Assembly (NCBI GenBank): GCA_001938485.1 | Contig: MQRK01244698.1 | Location: 12,202 to 65,602, forward strand | Source of the DNA: Girardia tigrina | Taxonomy: Eukaryota | DNA length: 53,401 nucleotides | Reading direction: 5' to 3' | In this document: positions 18,701 through 42,333 of the stretch, one piece after another | Layout: each line of letters opens with the position of its first letter | Numbering within the stretch: the stretch's first letter is position 1 | Program-made: the position numbers and the translations under genes | Notes under the pieces: model-generated | Database searches by the model: none | What the model was told of the DNA's origin: nothing | Seen by the model: only the letters and a program-made list of their open reading frames with translations

Positions 18701-21700
18701 CACATTTTTGCTCTTATTATAGGCATAGATAGATCATATGCACAATCATTATTTATTCCATGCCTCGTCGTCACATACCAGTTCAGTAATATGTTGAGAA
18801 GAGCGAGTCATCAAGGGTAGATGAAATCATGCCATTGAGAGAGAGAATAAAGCGTGGAATTCTACCAACCAAGGGAAGTGGATGCGGTCTGTTGGAAGCA
18901 AATTCAAGCCTCATGGGTGTAGTTCCTGGTCGTGGTCTGTTATTAAAGAAAGCATCAAGTGGCGAGGGTGGAATTCTTGGACGTGGCCTTTCATCAAAGA
19001 AAACATCATGCGAAAAACGAGGAATTCTTGGAATGGAAGCTGACGGACGTGAAAGAAGATCAGCTGCGACAAAAGCCTTAAGCTCACTATGGAATATAAA
19101 GGATGATGAGTCAGGGGACGATGATCTTAGCACAGATAATAGCTGTGAAGAAAACGTATATAAATCAGACAGTAGTGATTTGAAGAGAATGATGAAAGTG
19201 TGGACGATAGCGACTCGTGTTTAGAAGAGATAATTTTCACAGAGGAAATGCAAGGGAAAGATGGAACACTCTGTTAATCGGTTGCTATGAATGACGGAGT
19301 GAGTGATAAAATCCCAGGTTACAATGTTTTCACTGGAAAAAGTGGATGCACACTCAAAAACAAGGAGTTCTATCAATTCTTCTGACGAATACAGTGCTTT
19401 TAATATTTTATTTGATGACAGCATGCTGCGTCACGTTTCAAAATGCACAGAGAGAGATGCACAAAGACGACTTGGAGCTGACACTTGGAGAATTTCAATT
19501 GGCGAATTACAAACATTTATTGACTTGCTGTTCATTCGCGGTGCATGTTGTGCCTCCAACATTCCACTAACCAAATTGTGGAACAGGAATTGGGGAATGG
19601 CAATTTTTTTCTTCAACCATGTCACGCAATCGATTCAAGCATATAATACAATATCTACGTTTGATGACAAATCTACACGAGGCGAAAGATTGAGAATGAT
19701 AAGTTTATCATGATTTCATGGCTTTATGATCGATCTATAGAAAATTGTCAATCTGCTTTCTATCCAGGCGTGGAGCTTACGATCGATGAACAACTCTTGC
19801 CTAGCAAATTCTGCTGTCCGTTCATACAATATATGGCCAATAAGTCTGACAAGTTTGGAATAAAATTTGGGCTCTTATGTAATACAGCAACTAAGTACGT
19901 ATTGAATGCTCAACCGTACTTGGGAAAAGATAACTTCAGACCACCCAACAAACAACTTAGTCATCACGTAACAACGGAGCTAATCAGACCGTATGTAGGC
20001 AAAGGACACAACCTAACAGCGGATAACTTTCTCACCTCCTTAGCTCTCGCGAAGGAGTTAAAGGCAAAGCGAACTACTCTTGTTGGGACTTGTCGATGGA
20101 CCAGACGTGAAATACCAAATGCAATCCACACCATGCATTGTAAAATGAAGAGGTATGACTCTCTCTTATTTTGTGACCAGTCTCAAACAGCAACACTTAC
20201 ACTGTACAAATCAAAACCGAAAAAGGCAGTCCTTCTAAGGTGTGTCCACTAAAAAAGTGCACAGGTTTTAAAACAATCATAACTTTTTAATGTAATATTA
20301 TATAATTTCATAAATTTGGAATTTAAATATTTATTTTAATAGGTTAGAAATAGTAAAGCAGGTATTTAAAATTTTTGGTTTAATATGTTTTATTTTAGAG
20401 ACAATTATAATGATTTCAAAACGACATGAAGATATAATCAATTTTTTCAAAACGCACAGTAAAAGTGAGACTGTGACAAAGTTAACTGGCATTCATTTTT
20501 CCAGAAGAGGTATATAAGCAATAATACAACGCTATGAGAAGACCGGCAGCATTGAAAGAAAAGTAGAAAGTGGAAGGAAACCTGTTAAAATGACGTCAGA
20601 CAAAAGGAAGAGACTTCTGCAGCGTGAAACTTTGACTGTTGGACAAAGTGTGAGAAAGTTAGGTAGAGAAATGAATGTTTCAAAGTCTTACGTGCATAAG
20701 ATGCTCAAGACTAAAAACATAGTGTTTCAAAAGAGGAAAGAAGCCCCAAAAGTTATTCCGACACAGATTATTCGCCAGAAAGCCAGGTTGCAAAATCTCG
20801 CTAATATTGTTGTGGAAAAGACCAAAATCGACTTTGTACTTGATGATGAGTCATATTTTACACTCACCGGAGCAATGACATCGGGTTATTATGTGGACCA
20901 AAAGAAGTTCGGTGATGTACCTGATAATATTCGCCTTAAATTTCGAGAGATATTCACAGTAAAAGTTTTGATTTTGGCAACTGTTTCCAGACGAGGCATT
21001 TCAAACCTGTACATCAGCAAATGGAAATCTGTAGCTTCTAATTCGGATATTTATATCTTCGAGTGCTTAATGAAGCGTTTGCTTCCTTATCTGAATGAGA
21101 AATACCCAGCTGGTCACTTCATCCTCCGGCTAGATCTTGCTTCTTGTCACTACGCCAAAGCAAGTCTGAAGTGCTTAGAGGACAACAAAATTCCATTTGT
21201 CAAAAAAGATTCGAATCCACCTTGTGCTCCCCAAATACGCCCAATTGAAAAGTTTTGGGCTCATTTAAAGGAGAAGGTGTATGAAAATGGTTGGACTGCC
21301 GATTCTGAAGACCAGTTGATTCGCAGAGTCAAACTAAAGCAAAGCATTTTAACAATTTATATTTTAGGACATTATTTGCAAATTTTAGACAAAGAATAAT
21401 GCTTGCTAACTCTTATGGCCTTAATAGTTTGATATAATAAAATAGTTATTGTGTTATTATGATCTAGTCTTTGTTCAGATTTCCGTCAATTTGAAGGTCT
21501 AATTAAAAAGTTATGATGGTTTTAAAACTTGTGCACTTTTTTAGTGGACACACCTTACTCAGTTTTGTATTGTCAAAAAAAGAGGAAAAAGCTCTTGCTC
21601 TTGTTTTGAAATATTGTAGGGATTATGGGTTACCGATTGATCGTGCTGACTTGAAAATGATGTTTCGAGAATATTGAATTCTAAAGATCAAAAATGGTCC

Positions 21701-24700
21701 AGGAAATGACTTTCTGAAATCATTTGAAACGCGATGGTTTCATCGATTACGAAAATGCAAGCCAGAAGTAATTACCCTTGATCAACGGCAAGAATATATA
21801 TTTGCTATACTAGAAGATTTTTTGTGTCGCGTTAAGCAACTTTATGACCAAATATTCTTTGCATGACAAGCCAGAGCGGATATCCAATGTCGATGAAAGT
21901 GGATTCACGACAGATGAAAACTCAACTGCTTGCTTTTATCGGAGAGGTACTCGGAATTCTAATATTATCAATCCTACTGGCAGAAAAACAATGTTCACCG
22001 TTCTTTTTTGTGGAAATGCCTTAATGTTCTTCCTTCCTTCGTTTCAAGGCTACAAATCTTCATATTACGTGGAGTCAAGTGGGACCCCGAAAAACCGCTT
22101 ATACTGTAACCAAATCATGATGGATGGAGATACTTCATTTTGCAAATGGATGGAAAAAATAAATTGTGAATTTTTCTGTAACAAGAAATATCAAAAGATG
22201 CACGTGACTTTTAGGTCTTTATAAGGAATGAATTGGATCTATTTATGAATACACAGGTGGTTTAGTTTATGGATGGGATCGCAGTCATACAAGCTACAAA
22301 ACTGTGAAACTGGCAATGGATAATTATGTAAGAAAACCTTTTGTCAAAGAAATTTGTAAAATGCATTCTGAACCTTACTAACTTTAGACAATCATGCAAC
22401 GTTTGCTCAAAATACTTCCTTTGCTCTCCAACCACATGACGTCGGTTTTTTTTGGTTCAGTCAAAATACTTTTGGAAAAGGTTTTGCATCAGAAGAACAG
22501 AGAATCAGGGCTAAAAAGGAGGAAAAGACTGTATATTCAACTCTTCTGGCCCGATAATGGAAAAAATCAAGGCCGATAACTTATGATAGATGCTAAAAGT
22601 TATCAATCAGAATCTGCAGAAGATGCCTCCATACTTTTTGTTTAATAGACAAAAATGTAAAACACAGTCTAAAATTGTCCTAACCTATCAGTCATATGGA
22701 TGGAAGAGACATTCCAAAATCAACAAAAAATCAACAAAAATAGTTTATAAACATCATAAAATCGAATACAACTATTTATTATTTTGCAAATTGATAATAA
22801 TGTAGCAATAATTATTTTATTTGAACAAATATGATACATAATATCCAATATTTAATTACATCCCACTATATTCTCAAGATCAAATTACAAGATGTTTAAG
22901 GTGTTTCCGTACCAGTTTTGGTAGTTTCGTAGAATCTTAAACTATTTTTTATTGTAAAATCATAGTTCAATCTTGTATATAACTCTTTTTTAATTGCTCT
23001 GGCAAGCTGTGAATGAACAACATTGTACAAAAGGAATCAATCGGATCATGATCTCCAACCTCAGTCTTGATCCTTGTTTGATTTCACTCGCTGAAACATC
23101 AAATCGATCACGTGGTAGAATTTCTTTTTTACAAAACTGTAGCCACGCATCTAATTTACCTAAATTGATAGCACAACGCAATTCGCTTTTAATTTCCTTG
23201 ATATTAAGGTGAGTCATAAGTTGTGGGGCACTCTTTCCAAAGTAATTATCTTTAATTACAACATGAATTGTCGAATCGATATTAATTGAATTTGTATATC
23301 GTAATAAAGCTCATAAACTGAAGTTTCAGTATTTGTAAGAAAATCATGATTTTATGTTCATTCTAATTTATTAAACATTTTAGAAAATTATGGAAAAATT
23401 TGAAATTAGAATACTTTTGAATTTTTTCTGGAAAAAAGGTCTGAGTTCAAAGTGTATCACTCCCTCAAAGTTCCAAGGGCTGCCGTAAAGGAAATTTCCC
23501 AAGTTGAAGGGGAGGGCTTTGTCTCCAAATCTTCGGCAGCAAGATGGTTTAAAAAATTTAACGAAGGTGACATAAGCCTCGAGGATCAAGNNNNNNNNNN
23601 NNNNNNNNNNNNNNNNNNNNNNNNNNNNNNNNNNNNNNNNNNNNNNNNNNNNNNNNNNNNNNNNNNNNNNNNNNNNNNNNNNNNNNNNNNNNNNNNNNNN
23701 NNNNNNNNNNNNNNNNNNNNNNNNNNNNNNNNNNNNNNNNNNNNNNNNNNNNNNNNNNNNNNNNNNNNNNNNNNNNNNNNNNNNNNNNNNNNNNNNNNNN
23801 NNNNNNNNNNNNNNNNNNNNNNNNNNNNNNNNNNNNNNNNNNNNNNNNNNNNNNNNNNNNNNNNNNNNNNNNNNNNNNNNNNNNNNNNNNNNNNNNNNNN
23901 NNNNNNNNNNNNNNNNNNNNNNNNNNNNNNNNNNNNNNNNNNNNNNNNNNNNNNNNNNNNNNNNNNNNNNNNNNNNNNNNNNNNNNNNNNNNNNNNNNNN
24001 NNNNNNNNNNNNNNNNNNNNNNNNNNNNNNNNNNNNNNNNNNNNNNNNNNNNNNNNNNNNNNNNNNNNNNNNNNNNNNNNNNNNNNNNNNNNNNNNNNNN
24101 NNNNNNNNNNNNNNNNNNNNNNNNNNNNNNNNNNNNNNNNNNNNNNNNNNNNNNNNNNNNNNNNNNNNNNNNNNNNNNNNNNNNNNNNNNNNNNNNNNNN
24201 NNNNNNNNNNNNNNNNNNNNNNNNNNNNNNNNNNNNNNNNNNNNNNNNNNNNNNNNNNNNNNNNNNNNNNNNNNNNNNNNNNNNNNNNNNNNNNNNNNNN
24301 NNNNNNNNNNNNNNNNNNNNNNNNNNNNNNNNNNNNNNNNNNNNNNNNNNNNNNNNNNNNNNNNNNNNNNNNNNNNNNNNNNNNNNNNNNNNNNNNNNNN
24401 NNNNNNNNNNNNNNNNNNNNNNNNNNNNNNNNNNACAATGTATTGAACATAATGGACTTTATTTCGAATCATAATCTTTATTGTGCGTTGCTTTATGAAC
24501 ATTTTAATTTTTAATAAAAAGTGCCCCACAACTTATGACTCACCCTAATATTTCTTTGATAATTTGACAATAACCCCTGCACGTGCCAAATAACAGACCA
24601 CCTAACGTCATAAACAGATTTGGAACCTTTTTCTCTAATTCCGCATCTGTGGAGAACTCAATTTTGTCAATCAAACGCTAGACATTCTCTCCATCATCGA

Positions 24701-26795: not shown

Positions 26796-29461
26796 TGTAG
26801 CGACAATAAGACCAACGAAAATATATTTTTTAATTATACAAGAATAACTCGATTTCAATAATTCTGCCAAACGTTAGTTCACTTAAACAAAATCTCTTTT
26901 TAAATCAAAATAATTAACTCTATACAACATCCCCACCAGATTCGTCAGAACACGAATCTTCATCAACCACATAATCCTCTAAATATTTGGGTCTTCTCCG
27001 CAGGCGTTTCATGTCAATACTCCTTGAATCATCAACTTCGAATTCCTCTTCCCAAGATACAGATTTGTCATTAACGTTCTCCGGCTCAACTCTCCTCGGC
27101 CGTAAATCACCGACATGCCAAGGGAAACTCGATCCATTGCATTCCACTAAATATTTACAGTTCGAAAGTTCTTTCAAAATCTGGCCTCTTAACCATTGCT
27201 GCGTGCAACTTGTACTACTCATTGGTTTCACCCAAACTAACTGATGATCACAGTACTTCGCACCTTTTTTCCTCACTTCGAACATATTGTCGCTTTCGCC
27301 ACAAAGCGGTTTCATACATCTATAATTATAAATCATCCAACTCGGCGGTTCCTTACCATTCGATGGAGTATTGTTATACCACCAAACTGCTTCTCCTATT
27401 GTGATATTCGATCTCGCAGCAATTCGTTTAATCGTGCGATGACTTCTTTCCACGACTCCGTTCCCGCTTGGTCGGTTGATTGCNNNNNNNNNNNNNNNNN
27501 NNNNNNNNNNNNNNNNNNNNNNNNNNNNNNNNNTTAATCGTGCGATGACTTCTTTCCACGACTCCGTTCCCGCTTGGTCGGTTGATTGCACGATAAATTA
27601 CCTCGACTCTCCAACCGTTGCAAAGTTCTATAAAGTCGTTTGAATAAAAAGTCGTATAATTATCCACAATCAGTTTTCTGGGCGCTCCGCGCTCCAAAAA
27701 CACAGAAGTTACTGCCGCAGTGATAGAAAGCGAACTTTCATCCCGGATTTCTTTCCATATCGCAAATCTGGATGGTCCGCAATCGATGAAGCTTAAATAC
27801 TTATCTCCATTGAATTTGGTGACATCTATTGCTAATCTTTNNNNNNNNNNNNNNNNNNNNNNNNNACCGTGATCCCATCTAACCGGTGCGGGATCAATTG
27901 ACTGGCATTTCTGGCACTTCGCAATCATGTTCGAAATATCTTTATCTGTGACATTAATATTTTCAATTTTGCAAAGGAACTTCATACTTTTTGCTCCCCA
28001 GTGGCACTTCAAATGAAGATCGTTCAGTCTTTCAATTTCACTCACCAAAGCAACACCGCATACACTTTTAGTCAGCTCCTTCGGAATTCTCGTCAGTACA
28101 TCTGCTTTATTCAGCTTGCTCGGCACAAACTCTATTCTAATAGTTAAATAAAATCCTCGCAAATTTCTTTAATAATAGATAACCGCCGTCTGATGAGCAA
28201 TTCTGAAAAAGCACTCGTGTTTAGTCGAGACTTACTTGTTAACACGTCATTCACCCAGGCAACCACAGATTTGTTATCACACTTCACTGTGATGTCTATC
28301 ATTCCTCATTTCACACATAAATTCAAACCCCTTACAACCGCTTCCAACTCCAAGAAACAGTCCACACTTTATCGAATCGAATATTGAAATTATACTTATT
28401 CATGCCACCACTTTCGGTGATAACTGCCTCTGATGAACCCCCTCTTTCACCAGACATACAAAAACTTGCTGAACCAGTGTCCACCCCAAATTTCACGCGG
28501 CCGTTATTGAGCGTCACCCCCCCCTAATTTCTCGATCATGTCAATACCCAATAACACATCAAAATTTTCGGGCAACCTGTTCATAACTGTACAATTTAAA
28601 GTTACTTTTTTATCATCCACCTCAAATACAACGGCACACATGCCTACTGGCACCCGCAACCCTTTGGCTAACGTGACTTTTTCCTGCTGCTGTTGTATTG
28701 ATTCTTCATCCACAAGACATCTTTTCACAACCGAACGAGAGCATCCGGTATCCACTAACGCTCTGCAGCTTTTCCCGTTCACAACGCATCGAATCACCGG
28801 AAGCGCCTTAAACCCCCTGAGAAGCCGTTGGCGCTGACGACCCCTCACTCGCGTTTCCCGCTCTGCAAAATCTCGCTATATGTTCTTTTTGATGACATTT
28901 AAAATATATCATGTTACTCCTTTGGGAAAAATTTTTAGAGTGACCCTCGTCCGCATTTCAACCACCCGTATCGACGCCCTCACCTGACTTCTTAAAACGG
29001 TGGTTGTCGCGGACGCTACCGTCATCTGCTCCTTTCAAACGATTGGATCTCTCAGAATCATTTAAACTCACCATCAACGTATTACATGTGCTCTGCATGA
29101 TACTCATATATGTTCGACTTACTTCCACAATTTCGTGCCATTCTTGAATCCCTCGTCTCTCGATTTCCAACGCAATCTCCAATGGCAATCCAGCTAGAAA
29201 TGCGGCAATCTCTAGGCTCTTCACCGTCTTCGCCAACTTCGACACTTCCGCGGCATACTCGTCGATGGTGTGATAATCAGAATATTTAATATTCTGTAAT
29301 CTGCGATACGCCTCCCGCGGTCGTACGCCAAACGCCAAATTCGTTACATGGAACACTTCCTCAATGTTCGTTTGTTGCTTCTCCGACATCTCCATATAAA
29401 CGCTAAGGGCCTGTCCGGTCAACAAAAACGGGAATAGCATGGCGGGGCACAATATGAACAA
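26796..29461 (-). mobile_element. Ty3/gypsy element: gag-knuckle, aspartic protease, RNase H C-half, integrase, PPT, 134-bp 3' LTR (26929-26796); RT absent
   Basis: Motifs FKCHQKEHIARFC; ALVDTGCSRS; LELEAVVRGLN..CDNKSV..NKADVLTR; H..CHWG..CQKC; LAIDVT..IVDN..NGVVERSHR. PPT TGGTGGGGA followed by TGTTG...CTACA. Confidence 0.92.
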
Positions 29462-30112
29462 TCGTACGCGGCGGTCCTGGTCCTAGTCTCTAAACCTACC
29501 TGAGTTATATGCAATGAAACAAGAGGCTCAAGCTCAGCAGAACCCATTTGATCATTTGTCTGACGGAGATTTTAAGATTTATAAATATTTTTTATGACAA
29601 CATTTTTTGTTTTGTGTTTTTTTGCATTCAAATTATCCCCCTACCCTGGTATCTCAAATTTAAACATAAACCATTGTAGCGGGAGTGAGAGCTTTGGCAA
29701 AGAAAACTCAAATTTTATCGGATCCAAACGTTTCATTGTTTAATTATTAACTTTCTCAAGAGTTCAATAATCTAATGAGCTATAAGTCCATATTCTACTG
29801 AACTTATTTTGTTTAGAGACATTATAAGAAAATACACAAATATTTTATACCAAACGTTTAGTCTTTCTACAGTAAAAGCTCACAACATTATATCTGTTGG
29901 TCAATTATTTCAAAAATATTTTATCATAGAACAATAGCATTTGGCATGCAGCTTAAGAATATGATAAGGACGTTACCAAAATTTTTGATAGAAATAAACA
30001 TGGTAGAAAAAACGTTAAGGCCAAAAATGTAGTATTTTGAAATGAATCTGCTATAATTTATTTAATTTTTAGAAAGTACTTAATAAATGCTGTTTAGAAA
30101 TATCCTATTTTA

Positions 30113-37019: not shown

Positions 37020-37940
37020 ATCCCAAATGCGAAAGAAAATTACAGATTTTTATGAGAATCAAAGGGTCGAAAAAATGTTAGTCAGGTTATGATGATCACC
37101 ACTAATAATTTACAAAACGGTGTAGTGGTGTTGAAAGAGACGACCGGGAATAAAAGCAAATCCTACATAAGAATAAAATCAGATCAATTGAACAAATTCG
37201 CGGTACTAGCAAATATCAAAGGACGAAGCCAAGAATACATCGAGTTTTGGTGGGTAAATAATATTGTATACTACCCCGTAACCAACCAACTGGAAACAAC
37301 AATGGGGAGATTGAACAAGTCGATCGACAGGAACCAACAGCAAAAATCAAAAATATATAATCCGATTTATTTGTCGTGCACTCAACAAAAAAGAAAAAGG
37401 AGAAGTGAGTTAAGATCAATAAAAATACAAGACGATTTCGAAAGAATTATATACCGGGCGTGCACTGAATATATGTTAAGAGAAAGGACGAAACTCGCAG
37501 AGGAAACAATGCAATATTCTCTATTAATACCAGAACCACCAAAAGGCAATAAGATTGAAAAGTACTATCATTATAGTGTATATAGAGAGAATCCCTATGC
37601 GGGATTGTACAACCGAAAGGGACCGAAATTAGAAAATTTCCTATATAAAATATACAACGACCAACAATCTATCAAAACTTCAACGGAGAAAAGTCGTTTC
37701 ATCAGCATTGATGAGAAGAGGATGCAACAAAAAACTGAAGACCCAATCGATTTTCTATCAGACAATGGTTACAACGGAAGTCCAAGAACAGGTTGAAGAC
37801 AGTTAAGATAACCCCGAAGTCGCGACCGAAAAAGCCATAGGACCACGGCACCTTGATAACAATACTCGCCGTGGTAAGCATCTCGTGGTAAGTAATGGCG
37901 TCCGCAGTAATCACCGTCGAAATTGTAATATGTATTGATG
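37020..37940 (+). pseudogene. env-like type-I membrane protein A (5'-truncated, disrupted)
   Basis: 235-aa ORF, then after frameshifts a stalk and hydrophobic TLITILAVVSIS..VMASAVITVEIVICI. Intronless and A-rich. Confidence 0.5.
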
Positions 37941-37987
37941 GTTCATCAGGAATGGTTTCACACGACAATCCAACTTACCAACCGTCG

Positions 37988-40049
37988 ATGATGTTAACAA
38001 GTATGATAATGGCAGCGATGATGATAAGCATCAGCGAAGCTACGGTATACCAATTCGCGTGGGGAAAACTAGTAGCCAGGTACAACCAGGTACATATGGA
38101 CACGCAATCAGAGATATCCCCACCCTAACGGATATGTGAAATAGCAAAACGACCGAAATGTAAGAAGCCGTCCACGAAATGGAGAGCAGCTATTCCCACA
38201 GTTTTAATGATTTTACGAACAGTCCCTTCATCTAGACCTACATTGGAACGTGAAATACGCACTATCGAGTGGCACACTAGTATAAAAGTAACTCAAAAGG
38301 AAGTGGAGTTGGATATGACCCCATGGTATCAGAACACTCGCTATTGCTTACCACTTTGGTGTCCAACAACCACATTTCTATATCTACCAGAGAAAGCAAG
38401 GGACATCGTAAAAAGGGTCCAGGGACAAGTACAAGTAGAAAATATATTAATGAACAAAGAGGGAGTAAGGGTATTATTGAAAGAGGGATATCACGGACAA
38501 TCGTCATCAAAAGGAGAATGTACACTTCCATTAAAAAATCGTAATAACATGAAAGCCCGGCTCGCAGTAGTAAAAACTCGAAAAATGAATGGACGACGGT
38601 TTCCTATACATTATCAGGAATAGGATATAAACGAATCACATGTTACAGTCGAACGAAACATGCAAATGTTGCGAATGCTATTGAAAGTACCGTTCAGACA
38701 TGTCACCTTATGAACTACTTCGAGGAATGACCGAGATTAGTAAAACAAATGTGGGCGAGAATCCCAAAGTAACCGAAACAGTGGGATCGAATTACGAATC
38801 ATATCTACACTTGGGTTTCGTAGAGGATTACGAGATAACGATAACCTCGAAAAGTGTTCAAATTTTGCGACACCTCAAGAAAAAAAATCGAGTGATCATC
38901 GTAATCTGCGGAACAGAAACAGGCACGAGCATGGGAACAGACCACCAGGAAGGAGCCATATGCCAAAGGAAAGGTGTCTACATTTGGATCGGTATGTTAG
39001 AAGTCCAAGTCGAAAAGAAAAAATCAATTATCAGAGATTATAGAGCGGTCCTTATTTATAATGAAACGATATTTTACCCGGTTGTGACTCGACTTAAAGC
39101 AACAGTATATCGGATCTATTATCATAAATACCATCGATCGCTTCGAGAACGAATAAACAGAATAATCAAATTTCAGAGCATTGTCAACGGACAAGCCAAC
39201 ATATTGCGAGAACCCTTTATATTGAATTGTCAAACCTTTGATCAGAAACGGGAATTAATATATCGTACACGACCGGCATCCTTAATCAAGCAATGTCGAA
39301 GTTATATGCACGCTGATACGGATACACCGACAAGATTAACAGTTACTTTTATGACTAGATACCAAGAAGCGAATTTTGCGATATACCATCAGGAATATTT
39401 AGTCCAAGGGAATCAAACGCACGTGATATGCCCACAGTACGGTGACAATGTGTACGAATGAAACCTAAAAGTTGCTAAACCCACTAGAATACTGATATAT
39501 CGGCATGAGTATAGAGGAAGACAAAGTAATAGTACCTACAACAATTTCAAAGACTAATATGAGAAATACCACGAATCAACCAATCCAACGGACAACTTGA
39601 AAAATCACAAAGATTCAACGGATAAAGAATAAAACGAGTTATCCTATATTTGTAATAATTATTGCAGGAGCCCTTGGCACCCTAGTCGCCCTGACAGGCA
39701 TCAATTATATCTCTACTATCGACGATATCAACTCAGAAAGTGAGAGTACCGAAAGAAAAGACTGACCGCAGGTATAACCAACACACCACCGAAAGGCCCA
39801 CAAAATCTAATGCAAACCGAAATCGAGAGAGAAATCAAAGAGAACGCACAAGCCAGAATCGACCACGAGTTACGAGATATCGCCACGCGAGATGGGACGC
39901 TTATCGAATTGACAAACCTGCCGAGATTGTCGACTCGACTGAGAACTCTTCATCATCTTGAGTTTCAACGGCCGACGTGGGCGAAAAATGCCGAGACGAT
40001 AACGCCGCGGTTCGGACACCGACCGAACACGATTGGAACATTTGTATAG
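37988..40049 (+). pseudogene. env-like type-I membrane protein B (signal peptide, ectodomain, T-rich stalk, TM, tail; disrupted)
   Basis: Signal-like MMLTSMIMAAMMISISEA; ORFs 38207-38623 and 38700-39461; TM YPIFVIIIAGALGTLVALTGI at about 39640-39702; basic tail. Confidence 0.55.
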
Positions 40050-40288
40050 TACATCGTAATTGAATGGGACAAATGTAAATAAACAAACTATAATCGACTT
40101 GCGCGCGTATATCAAACAATTTACTATATTTTGTGAATGGATCAATGTGCATGTAATATTACAATCGAACTTGATGAACCATACCGATTTTATTATTTAT
40201 AATGCGTGATTATTGTATTTATCAACTGCATGTATTTTCTATTTTCTCATTCTATTATGTATCTTTCACCCTGTGTATATCTTTCCTA

Positions 40289-40325
40289 AAATCTCAGGAC
40301 GAGATTTCAACTGTGGTGGAAGGAA
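40289..40325 (+). other. Ty3-type pre-PPT hairpin and polypurine tract
   Basis: AAATCTC-AGGAC-GAGATTT followed by GTGGTGGAAGGAA resembles the TCTCG(G/A)GGACGAGA + PPT signature upstream of Ty3/gypsy 3' LTRs. Confidence 0.7.
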
Positions 40326-41050
40326 TTTTAGGATGAGACTTTTCATTTAACACCAAAGACAAGGGAATAGTCTAACTCGACTATTCCCCAGTAAGTTTAG
40401 ATAGGCCCCATCTGACACAGTTAACGTGATGAACCGTAGAGGTCCAGGAATACCATGCCAAACGGAGCCAGATTCGTTGTAGCATTGTCTCATCGTCCCA
40501 GTGAGCCTTTGTAGAACCCTTAAAAAAATTCAATTAAAAAACCCTTAATTAATTAACTAAATTACCCCGATGACTCAGCGTGAATCATACCACCGTCGAA
40601 CTTTCCGAAGGAATCAGCAGACCTGAAACAGAGATAATTAAAACAGAATACCTCCACGAAATGTTTACCTGAATAACAGATGTCACCTGAATGCCGATAC
40701 AGTCGCGGAGATTGGTGAGCCGGTCTTCAAACATCCTGTGTGATCCACACGAACGACGATGCAACGACATAGCTATCTAAAATATAAACTAATTAAATGG
40801 CAGCCAGGAACGAATACCAGTAACAGTTGCTACCCGCAGTCTCCCTTGAAAAATAAACATCCGAACCTAGACATAGAATCCTGACAAACGAATGAGATAA
40901 ATAATGAGATAAGCAATCATTCTACAGAATATCGCGATTACAGTCTTACATAAACAATGCGCTAACATACAATCACTTCCCCCCTTTCATCCTGTCTTTG
41001 GAGAATCACATACAGAGATACCCGAGTGTGTCAAGTGCATCCAACCGGGT
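40326..41050 (+). mobile_element. Putative long 3' LTR (right end undefined) with antisense intron-exon structure
   Basis: Starts directly after the PPT (TTTTAGG, where TGTAGG would be expected). Minus-strand GT..AG introns at 40817-40777, 40668-40623 and 40565-40519. Confidence 0.55.
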
Positions 41051-42333
41051 AAAAATAACCGAGGTAATTTTGCATAGACATAAGTGGTAATTGCACATTT
41101 TCACAATTTTATAATTTGATTGACGAAATTTTGAATATTTTTAAGAGCGATACAAATTTGTATACTATTTCTTTTCGACAATTTTACGAAGGCACAGTTA
41201 AACGCGAGTTATTTACAACAGTGTTACGACCAGCGAATTATTATTTACGCTTATTATTTTTCCGTACGACCAGTACTCCTGAACTATTATCTATGTAGTT
41301 TTATTGTTTTATCGCTGTTTTTTTATTTATTTTATTTTTGAATAATTTTATTTGTTCTTCCTTTTTAGTTTTGAATGATCTTTCTTTACAATAATCTTTA
41401 TATATAGGAATGGTGCTTTATTAGTAAACACGAATCTATTTAATGGGTTATATTTTCTCACGATTGGATAAATATTAGCATTGATTTTAATATATATTTT
41501 CAAACCTTACGTTTTATTTTGTTTTATCGGACTGTAACTAATGCTGTTTATAATAATTATTATAATTTTATAAGTTTACCATAATTTTTGTAATTAATTA
41601 TAATAATAAACTCTACAACAATTCTGATCCTCTACAGTACTCCCTGTCCCGAATGGAATGTTAAAGGGGTTCTCTTGATCACCGAAGGTCCGAATACGAT
41701 GGTTAGGTTCGTCGGGGTTGTGATACAACAAGTCGAGTCAGAGATGGATAGGTGTGGAGTGAGGATTCCGAGAATGACTGCCGTGTGAGGGATGTGGAGT
41801 CATTTGTAAATATCGTGTATAGAGGATCGTGATTGTTTGGAGATGGATGATGATATTGAATGGAGTGTTGTGAATATAATATAACTTTAGTATAATATAC
41901 AACAATTTTAGATGAATTAACACTTGATTTTAAATTCCACGAACGAACTTAGTATTTCTTTTGTTATTTATTGACAATAAATGTAATCAAAACTTTTATG
42001 ATATCATCTGAACACTTTTATTGAACCCATTTTGAAAGTATTCTGAAGTTCTTTAAATGGTTCAAGATATAACATGAGAATATAATATAACTGCGATTGG
42101 GTACGAACAAATTAGTTGAATTGTTTTTAGTTGTCCTAAACTCAATAATGCGATAACTCGAAATTTAGAGATGAATCAATTTTTCCACATAATTTTTTTA
42201 ACTTAAAAAAAACAAGTAATTTAGAAAACTAAACGAAAACATTTAATTATTAAAATGAAAAATATAAAAAAGCACCAAATAAGCCTGTTTTTTTTCTGTT
42301 GCCAATCATCTCAACATTGTTGACCGTTTATAA

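Follow-up and report, generated by a model that had tools for sequence, protein, structure and literature searches.

Twin predicted membrane-anchored ectodomains follow the integrase in the reading frame of giant gB-bearing Ty3/gypsy elements of Girardia tigrina

Two large ectodomains, here called A and B, were found after the integrase of a giant Ty3/gypsy retrotransposon of Girardia tigrina, where they are parts of the reading frame of pol. The window, that is, the whole stretch of 53,401 nucleotides that was analysed, contains a decayed, 5'-truncated 3' end of this high-copy, Burro-type giant, and the layout of the element was read from relatives in the same genome. A and B are distinct from a gB-type glycoprotein encoded upstream in those relatives and may well be accessory attachment proteins acting beside this separate fusogen, a reading that we regard as evenly balanced. 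The element class is already published whereas the twin post-integrase cassette is, provisionally, new.

The end of the element was organized in the window as follows.

37052..37846, + strand: C-terminal part of ectodomain A (modules 3-4) and stalk, from sequence and homology to copies
37847..37939, + strand: TM1, predicted membrane anchor of A, a hydrophobic segment
37940..38041, + strand: predicted short loop on the cytosolic side, then the internal signal peptide of B (37988-38041), continuing the frame of TM1; cleavage site placed by eye
38042..39645, + strand: ectodomain B (four predicted beta-rich modules) and stalk, from sequence, model and junction comparison
39646..39702, + strand: TM2, predicted membrane anchor of B, a hydrophobic segment
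39703..40049, + strand: basic stop-transfer stretch, then a cytoplasmic tail (~110 aa) up to the stop of the polyprotein, from sequence
40293..40325, + strand: conserved hairpin (40293-40311) and purine-rich tract (PPT) before the 3' LTR, from a scan of relatives
40326..42181, + strand: 3' LTR, with ~87-94% identity to other LTR copies

Homology started abruptly at 37052 in this copy, which retains only residues ~290-468 of the 522 of A. Three-frame translation revealed a frameshift near 37720-37765 and a stop at 37838 in A, a stop at 37889 in TM1, stops at 38126, 38621 and 39459 plus one in the stalk in B, frameshifts near 38689 and 39470-39482 in B, and a further frameshift immediately 3' of TM2. 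No Pfam family matched the A/B open reading frames of the window. The hairpin-PPT was present in 16 of 30 sequences scanned, with TG next in 14 of these 16. Homology to other LTR copies began at 40325-40328; the window LTR, which carries TT where relatives have TG, parted from other copies at 42181 and extends at least to that position. The sequence-only reading of this DNA had described a duplicated, intronless, membrane-anchored family in a giant Ty3 LTR element, and this description stands: the ordered motifs shared by the two ectodomains were recovered in three-frame translation (NNIVYYPVTNQLETTM at 37257, NETIFYPVVTRLKATV at 39060 and both cysteine-containing pairs), as were both TM helices, a signal-like peptide of B starting at ATG 37988, and the location of the cassette just 5' of the Ty3 hairpin and PPT.

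A and B had also been taken for two tandem genes, a view that the junction between them contradicts. TM1 reads in a single frame into the second signal (in the window the frame is kept, with a stop), and among 36 loci matched by a junction probe, 25 spanned the junction without a stop, five (the window included) kept a single frame with a stop at differing places, two were split and four were partial; two separate genes were thus ruled out. The integrase is followed by a linker, a hydrophobic segment that is basic on its N-side and ends like a signal-peptidase site, A (~520 aa) and TM1; then come a short basic loop, the second signal, B (~550 aa), TM2, a basic cluster and a tail of ~105 aa. 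The hydrophobic segments carry basic flanks on the expected side. The second signal was weakly hydrophobic in the two ORFs scanned from the sister lineage, below the threshold of 1.5; the third lineage presented the same layout with a clear second signal.

In sister copies, Pfam matches appeared in the order Ty3 capsid, CCHC knuckle, ubiquitin-like domain, PF24664, protease, dUTPase, RT, RNase H and integrase, several of the smaller matches lying below curated cut-offs. PF24664 (Monjiviricetes fusion glycoprotein, gB-type; E 2.9e-83 and 1.3e-84) lies in frame upstream of the protease and is itself preceded by an internal signal. The ubiquitin-like PF00240 before env (E 4e-4 and 1.8e-3) and the dUTPase PF00692 between PR and RT (E 0.002-0.017) were below the curated cut-offs. 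The PR-RT-RH-IN order with Gag upstream was seen in relatives, and it is deleted from the window copy. Long open frames covered 4142 codons from Gag into integrase in C249044 (this stretch contains N), 2568 aa from the end of gB via integrase and A into B in C227859, and 1906 aa from RNase H to the terminal stop in C229382; because no copy examined was open from end to end, we infer a single polyprotein of ~5,500-5,700 codons from these overlapping frames.

The linkage of the cassette to pol and to paired LTRs was confirmed in relatives. C227859, a sister copy and the only one with both LTRs, measured 28,717 bp including them and contains N runs. Its LTRs, at 60179-57707 and 33990-31463 (2473 and 2528 bp), were 97.1% identical over 748 bp and 99.7% over 606 bp of readable sequence, and the copy displayed TG...CA paired LTRs, a 4-bp target-site duplication, a PPT and a PBS which we take to resemble tRNA-Pro. 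In the window lineage, nine of the 22 contigs examined had a collinear integrase (six) or gB (four) upstream of A/B, the remaining ones being short, N-filled or truncated, and in the sister lineage integrase was found in 7/7 contigs and gB in 5/7. Some window-lineage copies (C232571, C219371 and C219800) carried internal deletions joining gB remnants or RT to A, with much or all of pol lost. C227859 (57097-54572) and C249044 (11185-13724) share three or four short, helical-looking ORFs (140-166 aa) in the interval that separates the 5' LTR from gag. A segment located just before the gB signal peptide of C249044 (about residues 1870-1950 of the frame from 18001) gave no Pfam match, and by eye we take it to resemble a BCL2-family motif.

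Searches of the own genome (1.43 Gb) with A/B queries yielded at least 49 and at least 41 DNA matches, and at least 117 and at least 150 protein (tblastn) matches. These comprised the window lineage and a sister lineage at 32-36% identity, the latter with long open frames. A third lineage was recognized in two of 10 gB-bearing contigs, chosen from 68 scored gB candidates, that carry A/B; its A gave 81 matches, mostly >85% identical. An integrase tree of 12 rows, from which four shorter matches had been dropped, grouped the three A/B lineages with 100/100 support and set them off from more distant elements. A PF24664 search of the same genome produced at least 104 matches from 68 scored of 4311 candidates, indicating that gB-type retroelements are abundant and form several clades. 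Host genes with introns, which would have spoken against the sequence-only reading, were ruled out by the multi-copy nature of A/B, their collinearity with pol and their long open frames.

A homologue search among 1.84 billion representatives returned only four fragments, three of them 43-69% identical to the window query and the fourth 71% identical to the sister lineage. Further homologue searches gave none, the eukaryote genome covered being the own one, and the ESM Atlas gave no usable match for A/B. Contigs from two RNA-labelled metatranscriptome runs, and from one run guessed to be RNA, matched the sister copy in integrase, A, B and the LTR, and none of the 15 rows listed crossed a joint. 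We did not count them as evidence of expression, since DNA carry-over of a multi-copy element is possible.

Profile comparisons identified A and B as paralogues. The window pair alone was barely significant (BLASTP, E 0.014), profile comparison gave E 1.8e-4, and profiles of two lineages gave E 7.7e-5; in a local rerun of the latter the real score was reached by 0/200 column shuffles and 2/150 block shuffles. With three lineages, hhalign reported 96.4% and E 1.2e-9 over 353 collinear columns, and in the local rerun the local score was reached by none of 150 column and none of 150 block shuffles, so that the similarity proposed by the sequence-only reading held under shuffling. When the third lineage was left out of the profiles, the B profile still matched its A (E 7e-5) and the A profile its B (E 0.007). 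The signal was carried by module 3 and module 2. Within the domains, the resemblance of B2 to B4 (E 1.9e-5, and 5e-4 on rerun, both significant) points to internal repetition, A2-A4 and A2-B4 were weak (E 0.03 and 0.01, respectively), and module 1 displayed no significant internal-repeat match.

Pairwise Nei-Gojobori dN/dS values, calculated on natural stretches chosen as stop-free and with dS near saturation in the window lineage, showed both A and B to be under purifying selection. The median ratio was 0.13 in the sister lineage (21/21 pairs for A and 15/15 for B) and 0.20 in the window lineage (27/28 pairs for A and 21/21 for B), with a median of 0.03 for integrase (6/10 pairs kept). Across lineages, four Cys columns were conserved in A and six in B (17/19 to 22/22 rows), three of which occupy matching positions in the A-B alignment; such cysteines fit a lumenal or extracellular location of both domains. 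Sequons numbered 1-5 per long row. Identity between lineages was mostly 25-45% for A/B and mostly 55-77% for gB, and ~65-84% for RT/integrase. A/B have thus changed much more quickly than either pol or gB, which is what one would expect of proteins facing the host.

AlphaFold2 models of sister A and B, built from two-lineage alignments with a mean pLDDT of 54 and pTM of 0.34-0.36, agreed in showing four beta-rich modules separated by helices. In these low-confidence models, A 117-207 (Z 7.0, rmsd 2.5, 72 aligned), B 124-221 (Z 8.4, rmsd 2.4, 82 aligned) and B 275-356 (Z 8.1, rmsd 2.7, 78 aligned) matched FnIII/Ig-like sandwiches, and Foldseek placed fibronectin and cytokine-receptor arrays among its matches with low TM-scores. 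The models suggest that A and B are strings of FnIII/Ig-like beta-sandwiches; this fold is a lead only, because single-domain Z values of 7-8.4 are at the chance level of the tool for common folds. Of the unknown fold proposed in the sequence-only reading, "unknown" is probably too strong, since a common sandwich is what the models offer. Pfam gave no match of note on A/B and none to fn3, the best PDB sequence match was an Ig-fold chaperone (E 0.013-0.024), and all BFVD matches had TM-scores <0.2 by query, with no fusogen named and many rows unnamed.

The position of the cassette had led the sequence-only reading to consider A and B the env of the element. By domain content they are very probably not its fusogen, because the gB-type PF24664 glycoprotein (E ~1e-84) occupies the frame upstream of the protease. 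No known fusogen profile or fold was found for A/B among the Pfam, PDB-sequence, BFVD and PDB-fold matches listed, the models being of low confidence. The layout of signal, ectodomain, TM, signal, ectodomain and TM recalls the glycoprotein precursors of alpha-, bunya- and hepaciviruses, and A and B might on that ground constitute a second fusion machine of their own, comparable to an E1/E2 or Gn/Gc pair but with a new fold. This is very improbable given that the element already has a gB-type fusogen, that A and B are paralogous and conserve only four and six Cys, unlike the cysteine-rich class II fusion proteins, and that no shared furin site was found.

If A and B are instead attachment proteins, the polyprotein would be threaded three times through the ER. 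The internal signal that follows integrase would direct A into the lumen until TM1 stops transfer, and the second signal would do the same for B, with TM2 and the basic stretch as its anchor. Cleavage by signal peptidase would set A and B free, and Gag and Pol, initially tethered between membrane segments, would be released by the protease of the element. A, B and gB would be made 1:1:1, in equal stoichiometry also with Gag, and would reach budding particles or the cell surface together, where attachment to a host receptor or matrix would fall to the FnIII/Ig-like arrays and fusion to gB. The fullest version of this scheme, which we put forward tentatively, is a three-glycoprotein entry system made from one polyprotein of an infectious retroelement, in which two FnIII/Ig-like paralogues choose the target cell or trigger fusion by the gB fusogen, a herpesvirus-like division of labour evolved independently. 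Herpesvirus gB is accompanied by gD and gH/gL, so that a class III fusogen works there with other surface glycoproteins. The likeness is one of working only, with no claim of shared ancestry, and the matches listed for A/B included none to gD, gH or gL by sequence or fold.

The same topology would also tether Pol through the internal signal after integrase, and A/B could then be intracellular anchors or chaperones which keep Pol and gB at an ER assembly site without being displayed; the few sequons of the third lineage (1-2 per row of A) agree with this. Nevertheless, two multi-domain ectodomains of 500 residues each, kept by purifying selection and yet turning over rapidly, are more than an anchor would require, and we consider such a role improbable.

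Another alternative, rather unlikely in our estimation, is that A/B are cell-surface cargo manipulating the host (receptor decoys, superinfection block, adhesion) and acting on the host cell, not on particles. Burro elements carry apoptosis and ubiquitin modules (PMC6431247), the IAP region of Burro1 has been reported, second-hand, to protect stem cells (PMC13465017), the structural neighbours of the low-confidence models include cytokine receptors and fibronectin, and post-integrase cargo varies between clades. On the other side, no host homologue of A/B was found in the sequence searches run, and the fixed stoichiometry with Gag and gB expected from one polyprotein would suit particle components.

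The variation in cargo was observed in a distant gB-bearing clade of eight contigs, in which those with post-integrase sequence showed other cargo, unmatched by the A/B profiles. gB-type elements hence persist without recognisable A/B, which argues against a strict need for them. Such cargo in C178456 (L092:5792-9541 and L093:2-1480) and C238894 (20703-18323), with gB ~29% identical, included a weak ankyrin match (Ank_2, E 0.0046), a short ectodomain with its own signal and TM, an additional TM, and an ORF that looked exonuclease-like by eye, with no corresponding Pfam match. In C252468 (L101:2703-3821, minus strand), also a distant gB element, integrase was followed in frame by a signal peptide and repeats FnIII-like by eye, for which no Pfam or PDB match was obtained. 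It may be that this distant clade generally places membrane-anchored beta-sandwich cargo behind integrase.

The sequence-only reading had raised the possibility of an undescribed infectious Ty3 lineage; as a type, the lineage was already on record, since both GAG-ENV-POL gB-type elements and Burro giants have been published (PMC6431247, PMC13524379). In Burro/GYPSM1 a single very large ORF encodes Gag, CCHC knuckles and a ubiquitin-like domain, with an in-frame env separating gag from pol and a dUTPase located between PR and RT; the LTRs are kb-long and accessory ORFs lie upstream (PMC6431247). The present elements share the one-ORF layout, here a predicted one, Gag with CCHC knuckles, the ubiquitin-like domain, the in-frame env, the dUTPase, the near-30-kb size, the kb-long LTRs and the upstream accessory ORFs. 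In contrast, the available part of that account names no post-integrase extension of the signal-ectodomain-TM-signal-ectodomain-TM kind, and gives 4,873 and 5,140 aa for Burro vs. a coding span of ~5,500-5,700 codons here (PMC6431247). Burro exceeds 30 kb in total length vs. 28,717 bp in our single copy with both LTRs, which holds N runs, and the BCL2-like, BIR, MATH and ankyrin modules of Burro had no Pfam match in the sister-lineage stretches scanned.

HSV/gB-type GAG-ENV-POL errantiviruses occur in Platyhelminthes, Nematoda and Bryozoa and likewise carry a gB-type env upstream of pol, but no extra post-integrase membrane proteins were found in the available part of their account (PMC13524379). 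It lists six gB-type elements of S. mediterranea with coding spans of 14.5-18 kb, whose gB rows look alike by eye, and the two longest (16.9 and 18.0 kb) could hold a similar extension (PMC13524379). LTR elements of bdelloid rotifers resemble ours in having a dUTPase and captured extra 3' ORFs, including small TM proteins; as far as the available part of that paper goes, these are separate ORF3s replacing env, whereas here two large in-frame ectodomains are additional to env (PMC5408684). No description of the post-integrase A/B cassette was found in the literature searched, although the 2018 genome paper, the 2026 Dev Cell Burro1 paper or supplements may hold one.

Conserved and yet fast-evolving, and predicted to be translated together with gB in three lineages of a single genome, A and B are candidate attachment factors. 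They bear on the question of how gB-type retroelement fusogens find a target cell and get triggered. To our knowledge, env-bearing retrotransposons carry one envelope protein, and the attachment reading, if true, would imply an unusually elaborate entry kit for a retrotransposon; if A/B act on the host instead, surface proteins would join the cargo used on host cells. About 1,300 residues of a giant polyprotein would also gain an annotation, and an unusual membrane-threaded Gag-Env-Pol topology is predicted. The transmission mechanism of gB-type errantiviruses has been called elusive (PMC13524379).

Other mobile elements were present elsewhere in the window. A separate decayed Ty3 element with gag, protease and integrase Pfam matches lies at 26920-29482 on the minus strand; it was ruled out as part of the A/B element because of the opposite strand and the absence of any match from the pol probes of the family. 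The remnant of a piggyBac-like transposase and two Tc1/mariner-like elements bearing terminal inverted repeats were located at 19303-20252, 20236-21557 and 23201-24551.
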